IMG/VR virus record: IMGVR_UViG_3300041955_000247
Location: 1-64,000 of that record
Source of the DNA: a virus
Direction: 5' to 3' (one strand)
DNA: 64,000 bases
The position numbers and the translations under genes were made by a program. Under the pieces are notes generated by a model. That model had not been told where the DNA came from. It did not search any database and saw nothing but the letters and a program-made list of their open reading frames with translations. The first letter of the stretch is position 1; every line of letters begins with the position of its first letter. Positions 5,146-59,286 of this stretch are shown in pieces.

Positions 5146-5196
5146 TTGACATTTTAGTAAATTTAATGTACCTCCTAGTTTTTGGAGGGTGTAACA

Positions 5197-5727
5197 GTGA
5201 AAGAACATCGTGGAAATGGAGTAGAATTCAGGGGTGACCCAAAAGGGCAGCTCCTGTCAAGAATATCAAAGAACCCTACCACCGGCTGCTGGATTTGGAT
5301 GGGTGCTTTGTTTCAGGGTAGCGGCTATGGTCAGTTCTCAAATAGGGAACTTTCAAAGTCGCCAACTACAGCACACCGTGCCGCCTGGGAAATTCTTAAA
5401 GGCCCTATTCCTGCTGGCAAAATGGTGCTCCATAAGTGTGATAACAGGAAGTGTGTGAACCCTGACCATTTGTATTGTGGCTCGAATGCTGAAAACATGC
5501 GTGATAGGAGTCTGCGTGGGTATGTACACCAGATGCGTCTTGACGAAGGAAAAGTTCGTGAGATGCGCAAGTTGAGACAAGCAGGGTGGCCTTGGCGTAA
5601 ATTAGCTGCAAAGTATGATGTTCATACTAACGCAATTATTGAGGCTACGATGGGTCGATCTTGGGCCTATGTGGACGAACCGATTCCTACAATAAAAATC
5701 GGTCCTGGCCGTCGTAAGGGTGGCTGA
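5197..5727 (+). CDS. HNH homing endonuclease
   Basis: CWIWMG...AHRAAW...VLHKCDNRKCVNPDHL...N motif; GTG at 5197 after GGAGG; AT-richer insertion. Confidence 0.9.
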   Translation: MKEHRGNGVEFRGDPKGQLLSRISKNPTTGCWIWMGALFQGSGYGQFSNRELSKSPTTAHRAAWEILKGPIPAGKMVLHKCDNRKCVNPDHLYCGSNAENMRDRSLRGYVHQMRLDEGKVREMRKLRQAGWPWRKLAAKYDVHTNAIIEATMGRSWAYVDEPIPTIKIGPGRRKGG

Positions 5728-40254: not shown

Positions 40255-40779
40255 CTAGTTGAACAGCAGGTCATAAAGGGCGTCTTTCAGGTCAAAAGTG
40301 TCTGACAAACCCAGAATACGTCTCAGCTTCATATTCAGGTTCTCAAGCGGTTGCAGTTCTTCATTCAGCGTCATGGCAATGGCCAATTTCAGTTCTTGAG
40401 GGGCTTCATTGAGCAGCGCACTCAGGTAACCCGCATTGGTGGTGTCGCCGGTCATATTGTAACAGTAGTTGTTGACGTCCTCAGGCAGCACCGTGTAGGC
40501 GTTCTTGCGCCGTGAAATATAGCTTGATTTGTCGTTGAGGAGGTTTGTGAGGCACTTTTTGAAAAGCCCCATGAATTTGGCAGGCTCAAGAACCCGTGGG
40601 TAGCGTTCTGTCAGCTTCCAAAATAACAGGTGGGCTTCCTGGAGCAGATCATCCTGGCCGTGCAGCCGATCACACCGCCATAGTTCGTGTCTTATGAATG
40701 ACGTTGCCCAGTTCTTGATTGGCCCTTCCCAAATTGGTTCGCAATTCAACTGTACGCGCACATGTGTTGCATGCGGCAT
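40255..40779 (-). CDS. Putative sigma-factor-like protein (region 2)
   Basis: DDLLQEAHLLFWK...KFMGLF...N.L.D pattern. Confidence 0.5.
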   Translation of the reverse strand: MPHATHVRVQLNCEPIWEGPIKNWATSFIRHELWRCDRLHGQDDLLQEAHLLFWKLTERYPRVLEPAKFMGLFKKCLTNLLNDKSSYISRRKNAYTVLPEDVNNYCYNMTGDTTNAGYLSALLNEAPQELKLAIAMTLNEELQPLENLNMKLRRILGLSDTFDLKDALYDLLFN

Positions 40780-40889
40780 TGTAAGCCCCGTTGCTGATGA
40801 TGAAGAACCCTCAATGAATTGGTAAGGCTACAATGCCGCAAGACCACGAAGCAACAGGAATAAAATTACACTCCTATGCCTTCTTGCGA

Positions 40890-40988
40890 TTACGAGCCTA
40901 TTGCCTTGTAATAGGCATACCACGTTAGATAGGTTGCGCCTTGCGTGCCTGGGCCATGCGGTTCGATAAGAGTCAATTTGAGTTTCAC
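40890..40988 (-). CDS. Cassette micro-ORF (32 aa)
   Basis: GTG after AGGAG: MKLKLTLIEPHGPGTQGATYLTWYAYYKAIGS. Confidence 0.45.
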   Translation of the reverse strand: MKLKLTLIEPHGPGTQGATYLTWYAYYKAIGS

Positions 40989-40996
40989 GGCCGCTC

Positions 40997-41143
40997 CTAT
41001 TCCTCGTTGAGGTATTTGAGAAGATCGTCCACGTTATCAAAGGAGGCTTCGGGCGGCGCTGCATCAGCCTCCATAATAGAACGCACGAAAGTGGGATCGT
41101 ATCCATCCCACCAACATCGCAATCGAAACCAAAGATCGCGCAC
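40997..41143 (-). CDS. Cassette ORF (48 aa), C-terminus like RelB/DinJ antitoxin tails
   Basis: MRDLWFRLRCWWDGYDPTFVRSIMEADAAPPEASFDNVDDLLKYLNEE; stop is the junction TAG. Confidence 0.6.
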   Translation of the reverse strand: MRDLWFRLRCWWDGYDPTFVRSIMEADAAPPEASFDNVDDLLKYLNEE

Positions 41144-41160
41144 GCCGGTCTCCTATATCT

Positions 41161-41580
41161 CTACGGGGTTGCTGGTAAAATCTGTTTGACGATCCATCTT
41201 CGCATTCGGGCAAATCGCTGCTCTGGCGTTTCTTTTATATTAAAACCAAAATCATCGTCGTTTTCAAAAACGACTTCGCGAGCCATCGCCGATGCAATCC
41301 CAAACACCGCAGACACTTTATCGGCGTCCTCATAGTCGAGGCCGAGCATATCAATGCCGCGAGCCTTGCCTACCGCGCCTATGGCACAGACAGCGCCAGT
41401 ATCAGGTTCAACAAGTTCACCGGCAATCAGTTTCTTTTCCGGTAACGCATCGAGCGCCGCAAGCATTTCCTTTAGGAAGGCTTGACCACGCCGACCTTTG
41501 ATCGCGCTGGCGACCGCACCACGGTAAAGGTAGCCAGAATTATCCTCACCATAATCATCGCTGTAGCCGCTGCGGCTCAT
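41161..41580 (-). CDS. Cassette: phage hypothetical protein (MSRSGYSDD type)
   Basis: 139 aa between junctions 41150 and 41587. Confidence 0.75.
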   Translation of the reverse strand: MSRSGYSDDYGEDNSGYLYRGAVASAIKGRRGQAFLKEMLAALDALPEKKLIAGELVEPDTGAVCAIGAVGKARGIDMLGLDYEDADKVSAVFGIASAMAREVVFENDDDFGFNIKETPEQRFARMRRWIVKQILPATP

Positions 41581-41589
41581 GCTGGCTTC

Positions 41590-41907
41590 CTAATTCTCTT
41601 GGCCTGATTGTTGAACAATCGGCGTCGTAGGCACGCTGCACATCCCCCCGCCGCCAGTATGCTTAACGAAGAACTCAAGATGATCTGGCGAGCCTTCATC
41701 AAACACAATATCAAAGCCACACTCCCACATGCCGTCGCGTATTCGAGGCTCGACAAACTTTTTGAAACGTCCCTTGCGACCGTTGCTTAGAGTAAACTCT
41801 GTGCCGAACGGCAATCGCGCCCATATTTCTCGGATGACTTCTGGCATTTCACCGTATAGTCCCGGCAAGTGTTCATCGAGGAAGTCTTGTGCCTCGTCCC
41901 GATTCAT
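41590..41907 (-). CDS. Cassette hypothetical protein (105 aa)
   Basis: ATG 41907 after AGGAAC; stop is the junction TAG. Confidence 0.65.
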   Translation of the reverse strand: MNRDEAQDFLDEHLPGLYGEMPEVIREIWARLPFGTEFTLSNGRKGRFKKFVEPRIRDGMWECGFDIVFDEGSPDHLEFFVKHTGGGGMCSVPTTPIVQQSGQEN

Positions 41908-41947
41908 GGTGGTTCCTATCATGCTTATCCGGTTTAGACACACAGCC

Positions 41948-42229
41948 CTACATCTTGTGTTCGAGTTTTTGTCGAGCAATCGCGGCCTGATCTTCGGCAA
42001 CAATCCGCGCGTAGTTTGCGGTTTTGGCTTCATCGTCCGCCTTGCGCCGGGCCGCAAAGCCATCAAGAGCGCGCTGGAACGCCTGCCTTGGCGTCAGCCC
42101 CTGCTTAAAAAGCGGATACCAGTGCGATGTGTAGATAGTGAACTCACCGCGCTCGTAGCCAAATTCGCCTTGAATTACGTCCTCGTCGAGGGTCTGAATC
42201 CATTTTCTAAATTGTTTGCTCTGGATCAT
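41948..42229 (-). CDS. Passenger hypothetical protein (93 aa)
   Basis: GGAGAG RBS; inside IR element. Confidence 0.65.
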   Translation of the reverse strand: MIQSKQFRKWIQTLDEDVIQGEFGYERGEFTIYTSHWYPLFKQGLTPRQAFQRALDGFAARRKADDEAKTANYARIVAEDQAAIARQKLEHKM

Positions 42230-42244
42230 GGTTTCTCTCCCCGA

Positions 42245-42499
42245 CTAGATGATCATCCGCAGCGGGATTGCATCGACGGTCGGACGCGGGTCCGCTTGCC
42301 GTTTCAGATCGCGCTCGAACTCGGCCGTCAATTCGTCAATATCCGGGTCGGATTTTGGAATTTCCGGTGCAATTCTCGTGATGAAGCACTGCACCGGAAT
42401 GCCGCCATCGGTCTCGCCCTGCCAAACACGCGCCGGAACGTCCCGGCCGCCGACTACGAGCGTCACGATCTTGCTGGTGCTCTCGATTCTGATCTTCAT
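42245..42499 (-). CDS. Passenger hypothetical protein (84 aa)
   Basis: GAGG RBS; PARVWQGET.GGIPV. Confidence 0.7.
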   Translation of the reverse strand: MKIRIESTSKIVTLVVGGRDVPARVWQGETDGGIPVQCFITRIAPEIPKSDPDIDELTAEFERDLKRQADPRPTVDAIPLRMII

Positions 42500-42561
42500 T
42501 TGCCGCCTCTATATCTAGTAGGTCTCAGCGTTTGTGTGTGGCAACCGGATAAGCATGGTTC

Positions 42562-42753
42562 CTATTTTGGCAAGCGTATTAACTTGCGTGCGTTGGGCAG
42601 CATATTGTTATCATAATAAAGCAGCCCGGTCATGCCGTCGTCCCATCTGACGAGAACGCAATAGTCGTCAGCGCGCTCGACTACACCGTGAGATGTGGCG
42701 ACCACAACATCGGGCTGCTCAACCCGATCACCGACCTTTAGATGCGCCTTCAT
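42562..42753 (-). CDS. Cassette small SH3-like protein (63 aa)
   Basis: ATG 42753 after AGGAG; LKVGDRV...VLVRWDDG. Confidence 0.65.
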   Translation of the reverse strand: MKAHLKVGDRVEQPDVVVATSHGVVERADDYCVLVRWDDGMTGLLYYDNNMLPNARKLIRLPK

Positions 42754-42761
42754 GACCGCTC

Positions 42762-42968
42762 CTATTTTGCTAATGCCGTTCGCGGCGAAAGTTTCTGTTT
42801 GACGGCACTCCAACGCACACGCCGCCGCGACAGTTCATTCTCTATCATTTTTAGGTTGCCGTAGATAATATCAGTCGGCATTCCACAGTCGCGGCGGCGC
42901 TTGAAATAGATGTTGATACGCTCCTGCAAATGGAGCAATCGCTCCGTATCTATTTCAGCCACGCGCAC
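42762..42968 (-). CDS. Cassette hypothetical protein (68 aa)
   Basis: GTG after AGGAG; ends ALAK at junction TAG. Confidence 0.6.
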   Translation of the reverse strand: MRVAEIDTERLLHLQERINIYFKRRRDCGMPTDIIYGNLKMIENELSRRRVRWSAVKQKLSPRTALAK

Positions 42969-42979
42969 GCGAAAAACTC

Positions 42980-43234
42980 CTATACCTTCAGGCTGATTGC
43001 ATCCGAAAAGAAAGTCTCGGCTTTTGTTCGCAACCCAGTATGGTGATCCATCATCTTAGCGCCGCTGATTTTGTATTCGGCAAATGCGGTTTTTACCTCC
43101 TGCTCAGAGAGGCCGAGTGCGCACTGAATATCGAACACAACGCACCGCAAGTGACCGAGGCGCCGCAGTGCGCGTAGGTATTCGTTGATAGCCGTAGCTA
43201 TCTCTCTAGATGATGGCCGAGGAACGCTGGACAC
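42980..43234 (-). CDS. Cassette hypothetical protein (84 aa), possible HTH
   Basis: GTG after AGGAG; DIQCALGLSEQEVK; stop at junction. Confidence 0.6.
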   Translation of the reverse strand: MSSVPRPSSREIATAINEYLRALRRLGHLRCVVFDIQCALGLSEQEVKTAFAEYKISGAKMMDHHTGLRTKAETFFSDAISLKV

Positions 43235-43315
43235 GTTTGGCTCCTATTTTGCTAATGCCGTTCGCGGTCATGCACCCAACGGCCCTTGCGATCATTTGTT
43301 CACGCAAGCAGTCTC

Positions 43316-43573
43316 CTATTTTGACTTTGGCGGTTTAGGCAAAGGCATCCAATGTGTCATGCCCACCCAATTAGGTTCTTCATCGCCATCACATAAATGC
43401 CACTCGCAGAGACAGCTACACCAGAACATGACAACATAATCAGAACGGGGCTTATCGCCCTTGGCTGGCTTCCCGTATCCCAAACGGGGCTTATCGCCCT
43501 TGGCTGGCTTCCCGTATCCCAAAATGCTGCGTCCGTCTTTCGGCGCAGTTTTGATGGATTGCCACGCGCTCAT
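43316..43573 (-). CDS. Cassette DUF551-like protein
   Basis: WQSIKTAPKDG...THWMPLPKPP. Confidence 0.8.
   Translation of the reverse strand: MSAWQSIKTAPKDGRSILGYGKPAKGDKPRLGYGKPAKGDKPRSDYVVMFWCSCLCEWHLCDGDEEPNWVGMTHWMPLPKPPKSK
43444..43521. repeat. Perfect 39-bp tandem duplication
   Basis: AACGGGGCTTATCGCCCTTGGCTGGCTTCCCGTATCCCA x2; encodes LGYGKPAKGDKPR twice. Confidence 0.95.
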
Positions 43574-43581
43574 GGCCGCTC

Positions 43582-43830
43582 CTATTCCTCGTCGGGCTTA
43601 TTGACGACATTGTAACCAGCCGCGTTCGATTTGCCATCTTCGTGCATGAACCAATACGCAGACATCAAGCCGCCTGTGGTGGACTCGTCAATGCCGAGGC
43701 GATGAATTTGACGAGTAGGAAAAGAGCCATCAGCGCGTGGTCCCCATTGCTTCCAGCCAGCGAAATTTGTCTCAACAAGAACACACGATTCACCGTTCTC
43801 AAACTGAATTGGCTTGTTCCAATCAATCAC
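43582..43830 (-). CDS. Cassette hypothetical protein (82 aa)
   Basis: MIDWNKPI; stop at junction. Confidence 0.65.
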   Translation of the reverse strand: MIDWNKPIQFENGESCVLVETNFAGWKQWGPRADGSFPTRQIHRLGIDESTTGGLMSAYWFMHEDGKSNAAGYNVVNKPDEE

Positions 43831-43841
43831 GCTACCCGCTC

Positions 43842-44015
43842 CTATTTTGACTTTGGTTTACCGTTGACAGCTTCTATTGCAAATCGCCGAAGGGCATCTG
43901 CTGGACAAGCCGTGGCTCGATGTATTCGCCTTAGCTCACGTTCGTAGTAGCGCGCAACGCGGCGAAATGCTTTCCAGTCCTTCGGTCCAAGTTCGACCCT
44001 CGATAATCGGGACAT
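43842..44015 (-). CDS. Cassette basic protein (57 aa)
   Basis: Read by hand: MSRLSRVELGPKDWKAFRRVARYYERELRRIHRATACPADALRRFAIEAVNGKPKSK. Confidence 0.6.
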   Translation of the reverse strand: MSRLSRVELGPKDWKAFRRVARYYERELRRIHRATACPADALRRFAIEAVNGKPKSK

Positions 44016-44024
44016 GCCGCACTC

Positions 44025-44213
44025 CTATTTTGCTAGTTCGATTTCAGCGACGAGGCCAAGAAGGTCCCGCTCCATCGCGTCCAACTCTTTAAGCCGAGAG
44101 GCGATTTGTTTGCGCTCCGCGTCGATTTTGCCTAGGCGGCCATCCACGCAATCGCATGACGCATAATGATGGTTCATCTTACCGCAGCTTTGGCACTTCC
44201 GGGGCAAACGCAC
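44025..44213 (-). CDS. Cassette Zn-knuckle / coiled-coil protein (62 aa)
   Basis: CQSCGK..H...C; ends ELAK at junction. Confidence 0.6.
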   Translation of the reverse strand: MRLPRKCQSCGKMNHHYASCDCVDGRLGKIDAERKQIASRLKELDAMERDLLGLVAEIELAK

Positions 44214-44221
44214 GGCCGCTC

Positions 44222-44434
44222 CTATTCCTTCATCGCCTGTTTGGCGTGTTGCTTACAGAACCTTTGATCCGGCCCATAGCCACGTCTGCGGCGGCACTGA
44301 TGGAACAAATAAGACACTCCATCGGCAACCTCTGCAATGCAATCGCCCCATCGCTCGGCGTGGCCGTTCGGGTTACCAGCCCATGCGCCATACCGGCGCT
44401 TGCCGTCTTTTCCGGGGTTGGGGACGAGAACCAC
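44222..44434 (-). CDS. Cassette Cys/His-containing protein (70 aa)
   Basis: YGAWAGNPNG...C...QC...FCKQH; stop at junction. Confidence 0.65.
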   Translation of the reverse strand: MVLVPNPGKDGKRRYGAWAGNPNGHAERWGDCIAEVADGVSYLFHQCRRRRGYGPDQRFCKQHAKQAMKE

Positions 44435-44443
44435 ACGAGTCTC

Positions 44444-45061
44444 CTATATCTCTTTCCGCTTCCTGTCCGCCGCGCGCTTGCGCACGAATCGGCCTTTCCC
44501 GACCTGCTTCCAGTGGCCGTACACACTGGCGGTCGAAACCCCCAGCTTCTCGGCCACCTTGGGGCCGGTCATGCCGCCGTTTAGAAGCTCGCCCACGCGC
44601 TTAATTCTGTCGGGTGTCATGTACACTTTCGGCCCCCAACTCTTGTCCTTGCGGCGCGCTCGTAGCGCGGCAATGCCCGCAGAGGTTCGCTGCGCGATGA
44701 TCTGGCGCTCGAACTCGGCAACAAGGCCTAAAACACCAAGCACAAGTTTCCCCGATACAGTCCCGAAGTCGAAGTTTTCTTGGAGCGAGCGAAAATACGC
44801 GCCTTTGGCGTAAATTGCGTCGAGGCGAGCGTAAAGCTGCCGCATAGACCGCGCCAGCCGGTCAAGCCGCCACACAACGAAAGTATCGCCTTCGCGTAAA
44901 TCCTTGATGGCGTAATCCAGCGCCGGGCGCTTAGCGGATGCCCCGGATACCTTTTCAACGTGCAGATTGTCCGGCTTGACCCCCGCCGCCTTGAGGGCGT
45001 CGGTTTGCAGGTCAAGCGATTGATCTTCGGTCGAGACGCGGGCATAGCCGACAAGTGCCAT
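44444..45061 (-). CDS. Small serine recombinase (resolvase/invertase family)
   Basis: GYARVST (Ser10), VWRLDRLAR, AEFER..I.QRT..G, C-terminal HTH VAEKLGVSTASVY. Confidence 0.95.
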   Translation of the reverse strand: MALVGYARVSTEDQSLDLQTDALKAAGVKPDNLHVEKVSGASAKRPALDYAIKDLREGDTFVVWRLDRLARSMRQLYARLDAIYAKGAYFRSLQENFDFGTVSGKLVLGVLGLVAEFERQIIAQRTSAGIAALRARRKDKSWGPKVYMTPDRIKRVGELLNGGMTGPKVAEKLGVSTASVYGHWKQVGKGRFVRKRAADRKRKEI

Positions 45062-45087
45062 TTCCTGTACCTAAGCAGATTGGCAGC

Positions 45088-45130
45088 ATACTATATGGGA
45101 CTTGACAACCTGTCAAGACCGTGATTTGAT
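45088..45130. promoter_or_regulatory. Divergent promoter with palindrome CTTGACA-ACC-TGTCAAG
   Basis: Minus strand TTGACA (45116-45111)-17nt-TAGTAT (45093-45088); plus strand TTGACA 45102-45107 with weaker -10. Confidence 0.7.
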
Positions 45131-45157
45131 TAAAAGACAGAATGGAGATTCAGGCCG

Positions 45158-45454
45158 ATGCCATGCTATCAGCCCAATGGAACGCCACTGACTGACCGAG
45201 AGCGTGAAGTGTTGGTCATTCTGATGGAAGAATGCGCCGAGGTCATTCAGGCAGCGAGCAAGCTGATCCGGTTTGGCAAAGAGACCCGTCCCGATGATTT
45301 GCATTTGCCGAATAGCGAAGTTCTCGGCATCGAGATTGGCGATCTAAAATGTATGATTGACAATGTGTTGTTCGAGGGGATCATCAGCCAAGAACACTTG
45401 ACGCTCGGCGCGAAACGCAAGCAAGCTCGGCTTGCTCAGTATATGCAGACGTAA
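45158..45454 (+). CDS. MazG-like NTP pyrophosphohydrolase
   Basis: EECAEVIQAASK..RFG...EIGDL. Confidence 0.75.
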   Translation: MPCYQPNGTPLTDREREVLVILMEECAEVIQAASKLIRFGKETRPDDLHLPNSEVLGIEIGDLKCMIDNVLFEGIISQEHLTLGAKRKQARLAQYMQT

Positions 45455-45471
45455 ATTGAAGGAATAGGCCG

Positions 45472-45795
45472 ATGGTTCAGACGCGCGATTTTCCCACTGC
45501 CGTTATCGCATCAATTTCGACCGGCATATTGCTCTGTGACTTTGGCAAGATGCAGGAAGCGGCCGAGTATCTCATGGGGCACCCGATCTGGACGCATCAT
45601 TTCGCTGACAAAACTCTTACTTTGGAAATGAAACGAACGATTGCCGAGCAATGTCCTGGTATGCCGATGGAGATTGATGGTGTGACGAAGGACAACTATC
45701 TGGAAAAACTAGCCGTCATCGAAGCTGAAATCGGCAAGACCGTTCGCATCCGTAAGGGCCGCGGCCTCACCGCGATGTTGCCGGCCGGTGGTTGA
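45472..45795 (+). CDS. Cassette hypothetical protein (107 aa)
   Basis: ATG directly after junction; SISTGILLC...YLMGHPIWTH. Confidence 0.7.
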   Translation: MVQTRDFPTAVIASISTGILLCDFGKMQEAAEYLMGHPIWTHHFADKTLTLEMKRTIAEQCPGMPMEIDGVTKDNYLEKLAVIEAEIGKTVRIRKGRGLTAMLPAGG

Positions 45796-45925
45796 GAACT
45801 GCGCCGTCGATGATTGTCGCAAGCGCGAATATATCGCGGAGATCGAGTTGCTTCGCGCGGAGATCGAGGCGCTTAAACTTGAAATCAAGATGTACGAACA
45901 GAGGTTTGCCGAGTTGGCAAAATAG
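45788..45925 (+). CDS. Cassette coiled-coil micro-ORF (45 aa)
   Basis: MVENCAVDDCRKREYIAEIELLRAEIEALKLEIKMYEQRFAELAK; stop is the junction TAG. Confidence 0.5.
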   Translation: MVENCAVDDCRKREYIAEIELLRAEIEALKLEIKMYEQRFAELAK

Positions 45926-45929
45926 GCCG

Positions 45930-46229
45930 ATGACAGCGGATTTGGGTAAAGAGGCGTTTTATGCGTCCTTGGCGATTATTGGCTTCGTTCTGGGAATGCT
46001 CGGCATTCATTGTCATCGATGGAACTCCTTACTACGAGTAGCCGCAATCTTTTTTGGCTTATTCCTCTGTGCCTTTGGCCTCGGTTCTACTTTGATCGTG
46101 CGTTCTGAGCGCGTCTCCGCCGCCCCCGGGATCATAATCGCCCTTTCGCCTTTGGCCCTGACCGATCCAAGGCTTTTGAAACCCATAGAAAACGGGAGGC
46201 TTACGAGGTTTGCCGAGTTGGCAAAATAG
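45930..46229 (+). CDS. Cassette membrane protein (99 aa)
   Basis: ATG after junction; two TM segments; ends RFAELAK. Confidence 0.6.
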   Translation: MTADLGKEAFYASLAIIGFVLGMLGIHCHRWNSLLRVAAIFFGLFLCAFGLGSTLIVRSERVSAAPGIIIALSPLALTDPRLLKPIENGRLTRFAELAK

Positions 46230-46249
46230 CCCGCTAATACGGAATTAAC

Positions 46250-46354
46250 ATGGATCAACGCACACGAACACTGTTGCTCGCGATTTACGGCACCAAGGCT
46301 GCGGCTGGAGTAATTGTGTTAGCCGTGCTGCTTATCTATCACTTCTGGGGCTGA
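46250..46354 (+). CDS. Cassette single-TM micro-ORF (34 aa)
   Basis: MDQRTRTLLLAIYGTKAAAGVIVLAVLLIYHFWG. Confidence 0.45.
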   Translation: MDQRTRTLLLAIYGTKAAAGVIVLAVLLIYHFWG

Positions 46355-46544
46355 TGGTGATGCGCGGAACGATAATCGTTGCCTCCGTTGTATTTGGGGG
46401 GGTCCTCGGTGGGCAACAGCAACCATTTGCGGCTGGGCTGTTCTTTGGTCCGGTCTGTTTGCCTGCTACGATTTGGCGCGTTAATGACAGATTAACAGGA
46501 ACAAGGAATAGGCCGCTAATGCGTCGTTAGTCGGGATTTGCACG

Positions 46545-46832
46545 ATGATCGAAATGGTTCCTAGGCCCCACATCGTTCGCCGCACTTGTGGCGGTTACTT
46601 GGCCGTTGCATCAAAGCGAGCCCGGTTCCGAATTGGCGTCACGGCGGAAACAGAGGCGGCGGCCGAACATAAGTTCTGGTTCACCTACGTCCGATGGTGC
46701 GAACTGGTCCCACTGGAAGCTGTCGGCGAGTGCACCCAATTAACAGCGCCTCATCTTCGTGGTGAGCGTGAGCCTATCGAGAGGTTGGCTTGGGGGTGCA
46801 CTCACCAGCAGCGTCAAACAAAATCGGTCTAA
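46545..46832 (+). CDS. Cassette hypothetical protein (95 aa)
   Basis: Between junctions 46507 and 46855; RIGVTAETE. Confidence 0.55.
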   Translation: MIEMVPRPHIVRRTCGGYLAVASKRARFRIGVTAETEAAAEHKFWFTYVRWCELVPLEAVGECTQLTAPHLRGEREPIERLAWGCTHQQRQTKSV

Positions 46833-46864
46833 CACGGGGTTAGCAGAAACAAGGAATAGGCCGG

Positions 46865-47809
46865 TTATAATTGCAAGACTTGCTTTGCAGTAAGCAGGCC
46901 GGGGTCTTTCACCCCTGACGGCAACATAGCAATTTGCACATTGGCCCCCGGCAGGCTGTCGCAAAGGCTCAGCGCACTACCTAAAGCTTCGCTGTCAAAC
47001 AGCACCCGCACCTTGTCATACTTTGGAATGAGCGCTTGCAGGGCAGCAAGTTGCCCCGCCGTGGGGTTAACCCCAAAAGTGCAGGTGGCCCGATGCCCAT
47101 GTGGTGCCCCGTAGTAATCCACCTTGATGGCGTCAAACGGCCCCTCTGTCACAAACAGCGTCTCACCGCCGTGACTGAGATCATGCTCATTGAACACCAC
47201 GGTTTTGATAGCCGCCGACGAACTGAGATAGCGCGGTGCGTGAGTGGTAGGTTGAATGGCGCGGGCTGTCCAACCCGCCAGTTCGCCGTTGCTTTGCTGA
47301 ATGGGTATGATGATCCGGTCCTTCCACCTGCCATGCTGGCAGCACAACAAGTCGTATTGCTCAATCAGGGTGCTAACATCATCAAAGCCCCTGCCCTCAA
47401 GGTACCGCCAAAAACGCCCTGTAAGCCCCGTGGGCTTGATTTGCCTAAATTCAGGGGGTAGCTGGCTGGGCAATTCATCACGCTGTACGGGCTGCGCTGA
47501 GCCACCCAGGGCCATTATGGCCTGCTCAAGGGTTTCAGGGTCGGCGGCGCTGTGCTGCCCCACAATCAACCGGGCTTGGCTGAATGAACAGCTCAGCAGG
47601 GCCGCCACAAGGCTGTAGGGCTTGCGCCCAGCGTGCTTGGCGTTGCGCCAGCAGCCAAAGGCGTCCTTGGTCAGTGAGATGGAAAGATGTTCGCTTGGAT
47701 CATCAGGACCGCACCAGGGGCACTTTAGGGCAAGCTGGCCCTTTCGGACGTTAGGCCCACTGGTGACATAATCAATATGATTGGCTTCTAGGAACGCTAC
47801 CCAGTCCAT
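46865..47809 (-). CDS. DNA primase (Zn finger + TOPRIM)
   Basis: CPWC...H...CWR; RIIIP; TEGPFD; DPG. Confidence 0.9.
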   Translation of the reverse strand: MDWVAFLEANHIDYVTSGPNVRKGQLALKCPWCGPDDPSEHLSISLTKDAFGCWRNAKHAGRKPYSLVAALLSCSFSQARLIVGQHSAADPETLEQAIMALGGSAQPVQRDELPSQLPPEFRQIKPTGLTGRFWRYLEGRGFDDVSTLIEQYDLLCCQHGRWKDRIIIPIQQSNGELAGWTARAIQPTTHAPRYLSSSAAIKTVVFNEHDLSHGGETLFVTEGPFDAIKVDYYGAPHGHRATCTFGVNPTAGQLAALQALIPKYDKVRVLFDSEALGSALSLCDSLPGANVQIAMLPSGVKDPGLLTAKQVLQL

Positions 47810-48192
47810 CAGTATGGTATCTCGTTGACAGGTGCTACATCAAATTCAACAAAGCTGGTGCGTTGATTGGCCCGCTGTTCTTTCTTGGTAGCCCATTGGC
47901 AATTGTCCTTAAAGTAACCGAGATTGCCGTCTTTGCGGTCCAAAGTCATTTCCCTGCAAGGTCGCTCACCCATGTCCTCGAGGAAGTTCCTGAAGGCATC
48001 AGGCGAACCGCGCCGCCAGCGTTCGCAGACCTCAATGCCACGGCCACCATACAAATGGTACCACTTGTGGGTGCTTTGATAGCAACGCGAATTCATGGAT
48101 TCCCACGACAAGTAAGTGGGTGATTTCTTGACCTTCCATTTGCCTTTGATGTTGCGGGTGCGTGACGTGTGGCCGTGGCGCTTCCCTGTCAT
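47809..48192 (-). CDS. HNH-type endonuclease
   Basis: SW..M..RC...YGGRGIEVCERW...DMGERP...TLDR.D...NCQWAT. Confidence 0.8.
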   Translation of the reverse strand: MTGKRHGHTSRTRNIKGKWKVKKSPTYLSWESMNSRCYQSTHKWYHLYGGRGIEVCERWRRGSPDAFRNFLEDMGERPCREMTLDRKDGNLGYFKDNCQWATKKEQRANQRTSFVEFDVAPVNEIPY

Positions 48193-58038: not shown

Positions 58039-59286
58039 TCAGTAGTTGGGTGAATCGACGTGAACAATAGAACCGAAGCCGGGCTTGAATGTGAGGAGCC
58101 TAGCTTCAGTCGTATAAGCCCCCCACAGCACCGGGCATGGGGGTTCCTTACCAAACGAACACGTTTCCATGTCGGTCAGGTACACAACGCAGGCAGCGTC
58201 AGGCACGTTCTTAGCCAGCCATTCAAAGCTGTTGTCGAAGTCAGTGCCGCCGCCGTCAGGACACTTGGCGGTGACTACATCGCCCGGTATGTATTCGTCA
58301 ACCACCCGAACCTCAGTGTCGGCATACACCACCCACAGGTGATCGCATGTGCCGGTGTCCAACGCGCCTGCTACTTCGCTGACAAACGCCTTGATCATCT
58401 CAGGTGAAACCGAACCTGAGCAGTCAACGAACATGACCATTTCATGCAGCGCATCCGCCACATTGCCCGGCAGGATCAACCCGCTGTGAATGTAGCGCCG
58501 GTTAGGTCGCCTGAAGCTGTAATCGGTGGTCATGCTTTGGTCAATGAACTGGGCCGTCAAGTCACGCCATGACACTTTGGGGCGCTGCAACTGTGTTACA
58601 AGCCGCTCAAGGTAGCCGGGGGTTTGCCCCGCATTGTTGGCCCGTGCCACGCTCACAGCCATGCGCACGTTTGCTTGCCATTCATGCGCAACTTGCTCAG
58701 GGCTTAACTTGGCCCCGCCTTGGCCGTTGCCTTTACCGTCATTGTCAGGGTCACCGGGGCCACTACCTGCATCCAGCACGGCACCACAGCCGCCGATGTC
58801 CACGACAATATAGCCGCCACCACCGGGCTGCTTGGGCGGGTCGGGGATCTTTTCATAGATCTCCTCGGTACTCATGTCCTTGAACTGCGGATCATACAGG
58901 TGGAACTTCTCACCCTTCGAGTTCATGCACTCAGCCAGTGTCGCCGGTTTGTAGGGCAACTGGAAGGGCACCTTTTTGAGATCATCATTGATCCTGAAAT
59001 CACCCGCCATGTTGAATTTGGTATGGTCGCGGTGACCCCGCCGTGAGAAGTGCGAGTACACGCAGTGCATGACTTCGTGAGCCATCACGCCCACAAGTTC
59101 CTCCTCACCACACTCAAGGACAAACTTGGGGTTAAAATATAGATTAACCCCATCCACGCCGCACGTCGGCACCCGCTCAGTCTCAACCAAGTTGAGTTGC
59201 AGGCACAGGTGCCCAAAGAAAGGTTCTCTGACAATCATCTGCGTTCGTGCACGCAGGATGGCCTGCTTGGCTTTGCTGTTAGGCAT
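58039..59286 (-). CDS. Metallopeptidase-like + VWA domain protein (DUF2201 type)
   Basis: HEVMH; DCSGS MIDAS; GGGTDF; YLTD. Confidence 0.85.
   Translation of the reverse strand: MPNSKAKQAILRARTQMIVREPFFGHLCLQLNLVETERVPTCGVDGVNLYFNPKFVLECGEEELVGVMAHEVMHCVYSHFSRRGHRDHTKFNMAGDFRINDDLKKVPFQLPYKPATLAECMNSKGEKFHLYDPQFKDMSTEEIYEKIPDPPKQPGGGGYIVVDIGGCGAVLDAGSGPGDPDNDGKGNGQGGAKLSPEQVAHEWQANVRMAVSVARANNAGQTPGYLERLVTQLQRPKVSWRDLTAQFIDQSMTTDYSFRRPNRRYIHSGLILPGNVADALHEMVMFVDCSGSVSPEMIKAFVSEVAGALDTGTCDHLWVVYADTEVRVVDEYIPGDVVTAKCPDGGGTDFDNSFEWLAKNVPDAACVVYLTDMETCSFGKEPPCPVLWGAYTTEARLLTFKPGFGSIVHVDSPNY

Follow-up and report, generated by a model that had tools for sequence, protein, structure and literature searches.

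The window considered here -- the whole stretch of DNA that was analysed, 64,000 nucleotides (nt) in length -- is the first 64 kb of a 76.4-kb virus record, IMGVR_UViG_3300041955_000247, in IMG/VR. Between positions 40,871 and 46,863 it holds an array of small genes in two divergent arms, placed on either side of a gene for a small serine recombinase related to Gin and Hin (Table 1). The genes of both arms are set off from each other by short repeated sequences, here termed joints, each built around a TAG; the units between joints will be called cassettes. The bases following the TAG differ between the left arm, which lies downstream of the recombinase, and the divergent right arm.

Table 1. 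Positions of the array features in the window
Feature	Position	Strand	Remarks
Left arm	40871..44447	-	downstream of recombinase, co-transcribed; ~14 small open reading frames (ORFs) and one 72-bp non-coding unit
Left joints, W-TAGGA(G/A)	starts 40871, 40994, 41150, 41587, 41913, 42559, 42759, 42977, 43241, 43313, 43579, 43839, 44022, 44219, 44441	-	15 joints
Inserted 636-bp element	41920..42557	-	terminal inverted repeats starting ATGCTTATCCGGTT; carries L9 (42245-42499) and L10 (41948-42229)
Short non-coding 72-bp unit between two joints	43248..43312	-	3' end repeats 28 bp of the L7 3' end (42759-42786)
Small serine recombinase, Gin/Hin-like	44444..45061	-	205 amino acids (aa); Pfam, phrog and structure matches
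Divergent control region	45062..45157	.	promoter scan; homology with L052/L053, ends after AGGCCG
Primary right joint, inside 5' leader	45150..45157	+	TCAGGCCG here; TTAGGCCG in L052/L053
Right arm, divergent	45463..46863	+	~7 ORFs; 5 joints AATAG(G/C)CCG at 45463, 45921, 46225, 46507, 46855
Right cassettes	R1 45158-45454; R2+R3 45472-45925; R4 45930-46229; R5+R6 46250-46530; R7 46545-46832	+	
R7 non-coding 3' tail	46829..46863	+	form TTAGCARRAACARGGWWTAGGCC; recurs at 46487-46515 and in L052, L053; right-arm-leader-like

The joints, the recombinase and the control region

All 15 left joints continue as TAGGA(G/A), in keeping with the original prediction for this DNA. Counting both strands of the whole window, W-TAGGA(G/A) has 32 matches, as against 14.3 +/- 3.7 in 100 shuffles that preserved dinucleotides, none of which reached 32; the 15 joints are clustered on the minus strand within 3.6 kb. 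An ATG or GTG stands 2-9 nt past the hexamer in 14 of the 15, the exception being the outermost joint, at 40871. For 11 left genes the TAG of the joint doubles as the stop codon of the gene that precedes it, and TAG ends 14 of the 15 left-arm genes (the recombinase included) as against 14 of 51 backbone ORFs. The right joints, five of five, likewise read as had been claimed: AATAG(G/C)CCG has seven matches in the window where 0.62 would be expected (no shuffle reached seven), and five of these fall in 1.4 kb, all on the plus strand. Those at 45463 and 45921 continue directly to ATG, and AGGCCGATG was found, as reported, at 45152-45160, ahead of gene R1. On this arm the joint provides the stop codon for R3 and R4 only; R1 and R7 stop earlier, at TAA, and R6 passes through in another frame. 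Some cassettes carry two genes, there being no joint between R2 and R3 or between R5 and R6. Both kinds of upstream half that had been noted occur on both arms, the CAAAA type at six left and two right joints and the GGAA type at three on each side. As to the genes themselves, L5 belongs to DUF551, L12 to phrog_25637 and R2 to DUF7736, and R1 is weakly similar to nucleoside triphosphate pyrophosphohydrolases; most of the other ORFs of the array have no family.

The recombinase matches the Pfam family Resolvase (PF00239, E 2.9e-38) and the DNA invertases of phrog_125 (E 8.8e-56), and the nearest solved structure is that of the Gin invertase (4m6f/3uj3, E 3e-33). The alignment with Gin (4m6f) spans residues 3-181 and takes in the N-terminal serine catalytic domain and its conserved Ser near residue 10, with YARVSTEDQ opposite YVRVSTNDQ; the C-terminal HTH_7 match reaches 18.8 bits against a cut-off of 23.8, though the Gin alignment does extend across that region. 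Its scores with the NCBIfam models for Ccr are far under their cut-offs. The TAG that stops the recombinase gene is itself the first left joint.

Between the two operons lies a 17-bp palindrome, CTTGACAACCTGTCAAG (45100-45116), with two opposed -35-like hexamers (TTGACA-NNN-TGTCAA); it is found at the same place in the related loci L003, L004, L005, L006, L055, L057 and L058 (see below), and the leader is also conserved in relatives. Its odd length makes the palindrome look more like a repressor operator than a crossover site. A single strong promoter-like site, TTGACA-17-TAGTAT (45116-45088, minus strand), overlaps it and is aimed into the recombinase operon. The right-arm leader within the control region terminates in GGAGATT-CAGGCCG, where the primary right joint lies; no reading frame precedes this joint, so there is nothing there for it to terminate. 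The AGGCCG ahead of the first right gene is that primary joint with a T-to-C point mutation, L052 and L053 reading TAGGCCG. A scan of the array gave no promoter- or terminator-like matches at the joints, and the totals of 5 and 10 such matches are at the level of shuffles (5.1 and 7.6 expected); for this reason each arm is probably a single operon.

The number of left joints has to be read together with the inserted element in that arm. This is flanked by a 9-bp direct repeat, ATAGGAACC, that is the same as the joints at 41913 and 42559, and these two are one joint duplicated upon insertion, leaving 14 independent left joints. Two gene boundaries without the motif, at about 42230-42245 and 42500-42512, lie within the element. 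Its insertion thus accounts for two of the three TAGGAA spellings, for the odd upstream half GCATGA and for the two left boundaries that have no motif.

Arm-specific joints in related phages

Relatives were sought by searching viral, genome and metagenome collections with the recombinase as query, which gave loci (designated L002 and so on) at 57-100% protein identity. In 21 loci with a recombinase at least 55% identical, joint motifs that precede a start codon were counted to a distance of 4 kb either way. The outward-strand counts of TAGGAR and TAG(G/C)C(C/A) were 63 and 7 in the arm downstream of the recombinase, and 7 and 47 in the divergent arm, over an inward-strand background of 3-6 each. 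A blind count, which avoids the circularity of counting chosen motifs, took in at 20 loci every W-TAG with an ATG or GTG 1-13 nt further on that opens at least 35 codons. Among the 68 such sites downstream of the recombinase the next triplet is GAG in 43, AGG in 7, GAA in 4 and GCC in none, and among the 64 sites of the divergent arm it is GCC in 28, CCC in 6, CCA in 2 and GAG in 3; the controls from the inward strands, of 31 and 27 sites, gave no triplet a count above three. A gene-chain heuristic for defining the boundaries blindly pointed in the same direction, [[30,1],[10,27]], and was set aside: it cut the arms at spurious antisense ORFs and also misread GGAA-type upstream halves as AGGAR.

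Most of the wrong-type hits in relatives lie far out and resemble background, and some are real: L006 has one TAGGAG joint in its divergent arm, the L008/L009 pair (57% identity) has TAGGAG on both sides, and L055 will be considered below. With these exceptions the arm rule is not absolute; within the clade above ~60% identity it is a strong family trait. The purity of the two arms on which the original prediction was built accordingly holds in the window, at 15 of 15 and 5 of 5 joints, and fails as an absolute rule among the relatives. Its suggestion of arm-specific insertion, or separate pools of genes for the two arms, fits the cassette families common to several loci, which have the same arm type in six of seven pairs.

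Aligned over the loci, the joints have an upstream half of about 9 nt, W-G-R-M-R-R-A-W, followed by TAG, alike on both arms, and conservation around the TAG is confined to about -9 to +6. After the TAG the recombinase arm has G-AG and the divergent arm (G/C)-CC, so that the discriminating base is the A or C at +4, counted from the T of TAG; in the motif-selected sets +4/+5 is AG in 57 of 62 joints on the one arm and CC in 42 of 45 on the other, and the blind set agrees. A reading of ..TATAGGAGA as a T7-type promoter was considered and rejected, there being no conservation past -9 and no RNA polymerase recognised among the ORFs scanned.

The joint spelling was found only with this clade of Gin-like serine recombinases. 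At 43 loci where the recombinase is 35-48% identical, motif hits number fewer than three on each arm. The recombinase and the array are both lacking from 19 phage loci with homologues of L12 or R2, where the upstream regions of these genes are ordinary. Phages sharing the recombinase at 74-92% have almost nothing else in common, their backbone proteins matching at ~35%, and the cassettes of the window have no homologue in the arms of the nine other loci compared. The flanking backbone genes have the opposite orientation or position relative to the module when the window is compared with L002, and L007 with L004 and L010, which indicates that arm type follows the recombinase and not the strand of the backbone.

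The bases around the TAG also bear on translation, the original prediction having suggested that one arm might be well translated and the other weakly. On the arm downstream of the recombinase, GGAG stands 8-9 nt ahead of the start at 34 of 68 sites; the left downstream half is a ribosome-binding site at normal spacing, and this part of the suggestion stands. Divergent-arm joints have GGAA-type upstream halves more often (G at -4 in 31 of 45, versus 25 of 62 on the other arm), and these halves often bring a ribosome-binding motif, AAGGA or GAGGA, to 8-11 nt ahead of the start. Right-arm starts lie only 4-8 nt past the TAG, a spacing that suits reinitiation. Given this motif and the distance to the start, a weakly translated right arm is not established.

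Cassette turnover and what exchanges the cassettes

The recombinases of loci L052, L053 and L054 are 97-99% identical to that of the window in protein and 88-95% in DNA, and the DNA homology of these loci with the window stops immediately past ..GAGATA-TAGGAG on the left and ..GGAGATT-(T/C)AGGCCG on the right. Logan contigs of four runs (one of them, X1, perhaps from the source sample) were also compared, at 90% likeness, such contigs dropping rare forms. Those of three other runs have single cassettes of this array in other surroundings, with breakpoints at 44441, 45152, 46515/46516, 46863, 43313 and 40867, and in one contig the L5b unit stands behind a different neighbour. Non-coding units bounded by joints are found as well, namely the 72-bp unit of the window and a 62-bp unit present in two copies in L010. 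L003 and L010 share one cassette, 97% identical over 235 bp, with a TAG at both ends. In L002 and L057 there are chimeric cassettes with breakpoints within genes, so that more than one process is operating.

The reading that we favour, though with rather less than even confidence, is that the joints are the exchange points of gene cassettes, most likely by way of the adjacent recombinase, and that the arm-specific bases lie in or beside the crossover. The stretch would then be a two-operon array of exchangeable cassettes around the Gin-like enzyme. The bases at +4/+5 would belong to, or adjoin, a 2-bp crossover, and only like joints would recombine productively, which would stop the oppositely oriented arms from inverting against each other; were +4/+5 the crossover dinucleotide itself, a left joint could not be rejoined to a right one. 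Within each arm the joints would have been copied from the primary one, which is ..GAGATA-TAGGAG at the recombinase stop for the left arm and ..GGAGATT-TAGGCCG in the leader for the right. A left joint also acts as the ribosome-binding site of the next gene, and a right-arm start would rely either on reinitiation or on an upstream half that resembles AAGGA. The sites of Hin, Gin and the resolvases are made up of 12-bp half-sites about a 2-bp crossover, and the conserved span of the joint, -8 to +5, corresponds in size to one such half-site plus the crossover. The CAAAA-type upstream halves have what we take to be a likeness to the Hin/Gin half-site, mentioned as a lead and not as evidence.

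That a site at the level of DNA or RNA is involved is also indicated by the upstream half being kept where the gene has already been ended by TAA or TGA. These retained halves, the TAGGCC in a leader with no reading frame, and the non-coding units bounded by joints argue that the joint is not merely a stop codon. We think that both layers are real, the joints being exchange points whose sequence is shaped as well by the stopping and starting of genes. The spelling pattern, its persistence among relatives, the tie to this recombinase clade and the breaks at joints are observed; the part of the enzyme in exchange, the place of the crossover and the translational contrast between the arms are inferred.

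Several observations weigh against exchange by the recombinase at such a crossover. No dyad-symmetric 26-30-bp site of the Hin/Gin type is visible at the joints, one half alone being conserved. A +2 variant (TAG-AG-GAG, TAG-AG-GCC) obeys the arm rule, so the distance from TAG to AGGAG or AGGCC can vary, as would be expected of an RNA-level signal more than of a fixed crossover. Right arms mix TAGGCC with TAGCCC; in L055, three joints of the divergent arm read TAGGAG-NN-CGCCGCC-ATG and one reads TAGGCC; and one cassette family is joined by TAGGAG in L055 and by TAGGCC in L057. Overlaps of stop codon and ribosome site in the form TAGGAG occur at ~5 backbone gene boundaries of this phage, the recombinase gene of more distant relatives ends in TGA-GGAG, and the phage has its own UvsX-like recombinase. 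The cassette common to L003 and L010 differs at two of the three bases past its 5' TAG and directly past its 3' TAG, and no single fixed crossover explains this pair. It is the one clean pair from which the crossover might have been placed and is internally inconsistent, and the breakpoints of L052-L054 fall past the whole core; aligning the junctions of homologous loci, which had been put forward for this purpose, thus yielded the arm-specific bases at +4/+5, and shared cassettes did not fix the position of the crossover. Among the contig joints listed (15 of 24) none changes strand, and no circles were found, in contigs that would miss rare inverted or circular forms.

The alternative that survives best, though we regard it as somewhat unlikely, is that the joints are translational punctuation, repeated at each boundary of two closely packed operons, and that homologous recombination by the phage itself, acting at these short repeats, shuffles cassettes among co-infecting phages, in the manner of the promoter early stem-loop (PeSL) elements of T4-type phages. 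The recombinase would merely lie in a dispensable region, and the arms would differ because its own operon initiates independently on GGAG and the divergent operon by coupling. Punctuation would not call for TAGGCC in a leader that has no preceding gene, nor for a spelling tied to one recombinase clade across otherwise unrelated backbones, and we know of no role in translation initiation for an AGGCC lying 0-6 nt ahead of the start. The shared sequence, just ~7-17 nt, is short for strand-exchange recombination, and the joints have neither promoter nor terminator. On the other side, the left-arm GGAG at normal spacing, the backbone overlaps, the +2 variant and the mixed joints of L055 all accord with punctuation, as do the occurrence of TGA-GGAG and TAA-GGAG forms, the intragenic breakpoints of the chimeric cassettes, and the UvsX-like recombinase, SSB and SbcCD encoded by the phage; and there is a precedent in the PeSL-mediated shuffling and mini-circles outlined in PMC2839356.

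Less probable again is a scheme in which the recombinase does swap the cassettes, at or next to the TAG, the downstream half being simply the 5' untranslated start of the cassette and the purity of the arms being kept up by selection on expression. It would account for the homology between the L003 and L010 cassettes, which begins at or just past the TAG, for the six of seven pairs that share an arm, and for the occasional survival of wrong-type joints in L055 and L006. The family joined by TAGGAG in L055 and by TAGGCC in L057 speaks against it, as do the two differences in three bases past the TAG that separate L003 from L010 despite 97% cassette identity; from both it would seem that cassettes do not carry a fixed downstream core.

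Multiple inversion of the shufflon kind, in which a Gin-like invertase would flip DNA between left and right joints and so re-sort the genes, is very improbable: the recombinase is indeed nearest DNA invertases by sequence, left and right joints are inverted relative to each other with W-TAGG in common, and the whole module occurs in either orientation relative to backbone genes across phages, but inversion between inner joints would put GCC-type joints downstream of the recombinase, where the count is 63:7 and the blind count of GCC 0 of 68, the L055 exceptions are interleaved rather than forming a distal block, no gene has alternative ends, and no strand change appears among the listed contig joints. 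The original prediction had argued against a shufflon in much these terms, and rightly, it appears, in that an absence of fixed left-by-right inversions predicts unmixed arms and the two types are unmixed here and seldom mixed in relatives (63:7 on the one arm, 7:47 on the other).

Known systems and other features of the phage

The array resembles integrons in having a recombinase gene beside a promoter region, a primary site adjoining the recombinase, and arrays of promoterless small genes; as in integrons, too, cassette content turns over completely between close relatives and the breakpoints lie at the repeated boundary site. The array differs in that its enzyme is a small serine recombinase (PF00239) and not a tyrosine recombinase of the IntI type, in that its boundary, ~15 nt long and coinciding in part with a stop codon, has no folded attC (an imperfect palindrome of about 60-140 bp at the 3' end of a cassette), and in having two divergent arms with different cores and a lytic-type phage as host. 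With a serine recombinase and no attC, it does not belong among the integrons. The Gin, Hin, Cin and Min segments and the R64 shufflon share with it a Gin-like enzyme and short repeated sites in both orientations around it; the array, unlike them, has no alternative gene ends and no dyad-symmetric 26-bp sites, and its arms are unmixed. In the Hin and Gin systems an inverted pair of such sites encloses a segment that switches gene ends or a promoter, and inversion requires an enhancer bound by Fis; as a protein, the recombinase of the array belongs with these invertases. In the staphylococcal cassette chromosomes (SCC), cassettes are inserted by serine recombinases, Ccr, at the 3' ends of genes, sometimes in tandem, and are separated by direct repeats that include the stop codon; the Ccr enzymes are large serine recombinases, and SCC cassettes are tens of kb in size and lie in the bacterial chromosome. 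Here too there are a serine recombinase, cassettes at gene 3' ends and a stop codon in the core, with the difference that enzyme and cassettes are small and phage-borne. The PeSLs of T4-type phages combine a promoter with a stem-loop terminator and are recombined homologously, as outlined in PMC2839356. As in the array, the genes concerned are small and non-essential and occupy a variable region of a lytic phage, with a repeated expression signal as the swap point; the joint of the array is a much shorter stop/start, has no sigma-70 promoter or terminator, and is tied to a site-specific recombinase clade.

No description of a phage cassette array served by a serine recombinase or invertase was found in the full-text literature, subscription journals not being covered. 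The boldest proposal, which we put forward as a doubtful one, is that a Gin-like enzyme runs an integron-like capture platform in lytic phages, with the two arms kept separate by AG versus CC crossover dinucleotides, directly following a common half-site whose last bases are a stop codon. If this were so, one enzyme would maintain two separate gene libraries with different modes of translation, and, with scarless joints, whatever gene was captured would end its translation and pass it on correctly. Exchange by the recombinase at 15-nt joints would amount to gene capture by serine chemistry in virulent phages, in a compact form that might be of use as a tool. Should the joints be punctuation alone, they would still be an example of expression signals acting as fixed swap points. 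The array is also of interest for the turnover in phages of small accessory genes -- candidates for host takeover or counter-defence -- at rates far above those of core genes.

Several sequences recur within the array. The 15 nt at the 3' end of the recombinase gene, AGAGATATAGGAGAC (44441-44455), reappear as non-coding sequence at 41150-41164, 3.3 kb away and right after the L12 stop. There is a likeness, too, between the right-arm leader and the non-coding tails of R6 and R7; run X1 has this leader behind other sequence. It follows from these recurrences that the upstream halves of the primary sites have copies inside the arrays. The R7-type cassettes of the window (46516-46547) and of L053 have in common a 21-nt 5' leader with a three-codon mini-ORF (ATG CGT CGT TAG/TAA) and also a 34-nt 3' tail, the gene in between being different; contigs of runs X2 and X3 link such a leader and tail across other content. 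Inside the DUF551-like L5 there is a 39-40-bp tandem repeat (43444-43484) that varies in copy number, one copy being omitted in X2 and X3 contigs.

The element at 41920-42557 is small and mobile-looking. It is also present at L013:2863-3558, at L054:784-832 and in loci L150-L229, with inverted ends of ~30-45 bp, and a 14-mer from its end occurs in more than 144 IMG/VR stretches (a lower bound), often as +/- pairs 270-1190 bp apart. An 8-9-bp direct repeat stands immediately outside the ends in 12 of 21 distinct elements, as compared with 1 of 420 mismatched control pairs. The cargo ORFs encode 67-343 aa and are mostly unrelated to each other. One end of the element has a 13-codon mini-ORF (MLIRLPHTN..) followed by TAG-ATG. 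In X2 and X3 the two end-containing bins (41862-42088 and 42316-42542) are covered by contigs many times more deeply than the neighbouring ones, and many contigs link the element ends across other content. On the plus strand, an open frame of 295 codons (41729-42616) runs antisense to L11, L10, L9 and L8, in register with L9 and L10; it begins in the same frame as the ATG in the inverted end of the element and is unusually long for ~53% G+C, and is probably a by-product.

An ORF scan of the backbone identified replication genes for a DNA polymerase, clamp, clamp loader, DnaB-like helicase, primase and SSB, along with a UvsX-like recombinase, an SbcCD-like nuclease, a GcrA-like regulator and a DNA methylase. 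The 43 backbone ORFs and 29 array and flanking ORFs scanned included no recognisable tyrosine integrase or transposase; with its own replication genes, the phage thus looks to be of lytic type. The host looks like an alphaproteobacterium, a guess resting solely on the GcrA domain. A blastn search of 40500-47200 against the phage GenBank collection gave no match, nor did an Rfam search of 40500-47300 at E values up to 1. Three HNH endonuclease genes are scattered in the backbone, at 5182-5727, 47809-48192 and 58039-59286, and one of these directly adjoins the primase gene next to the right arm.

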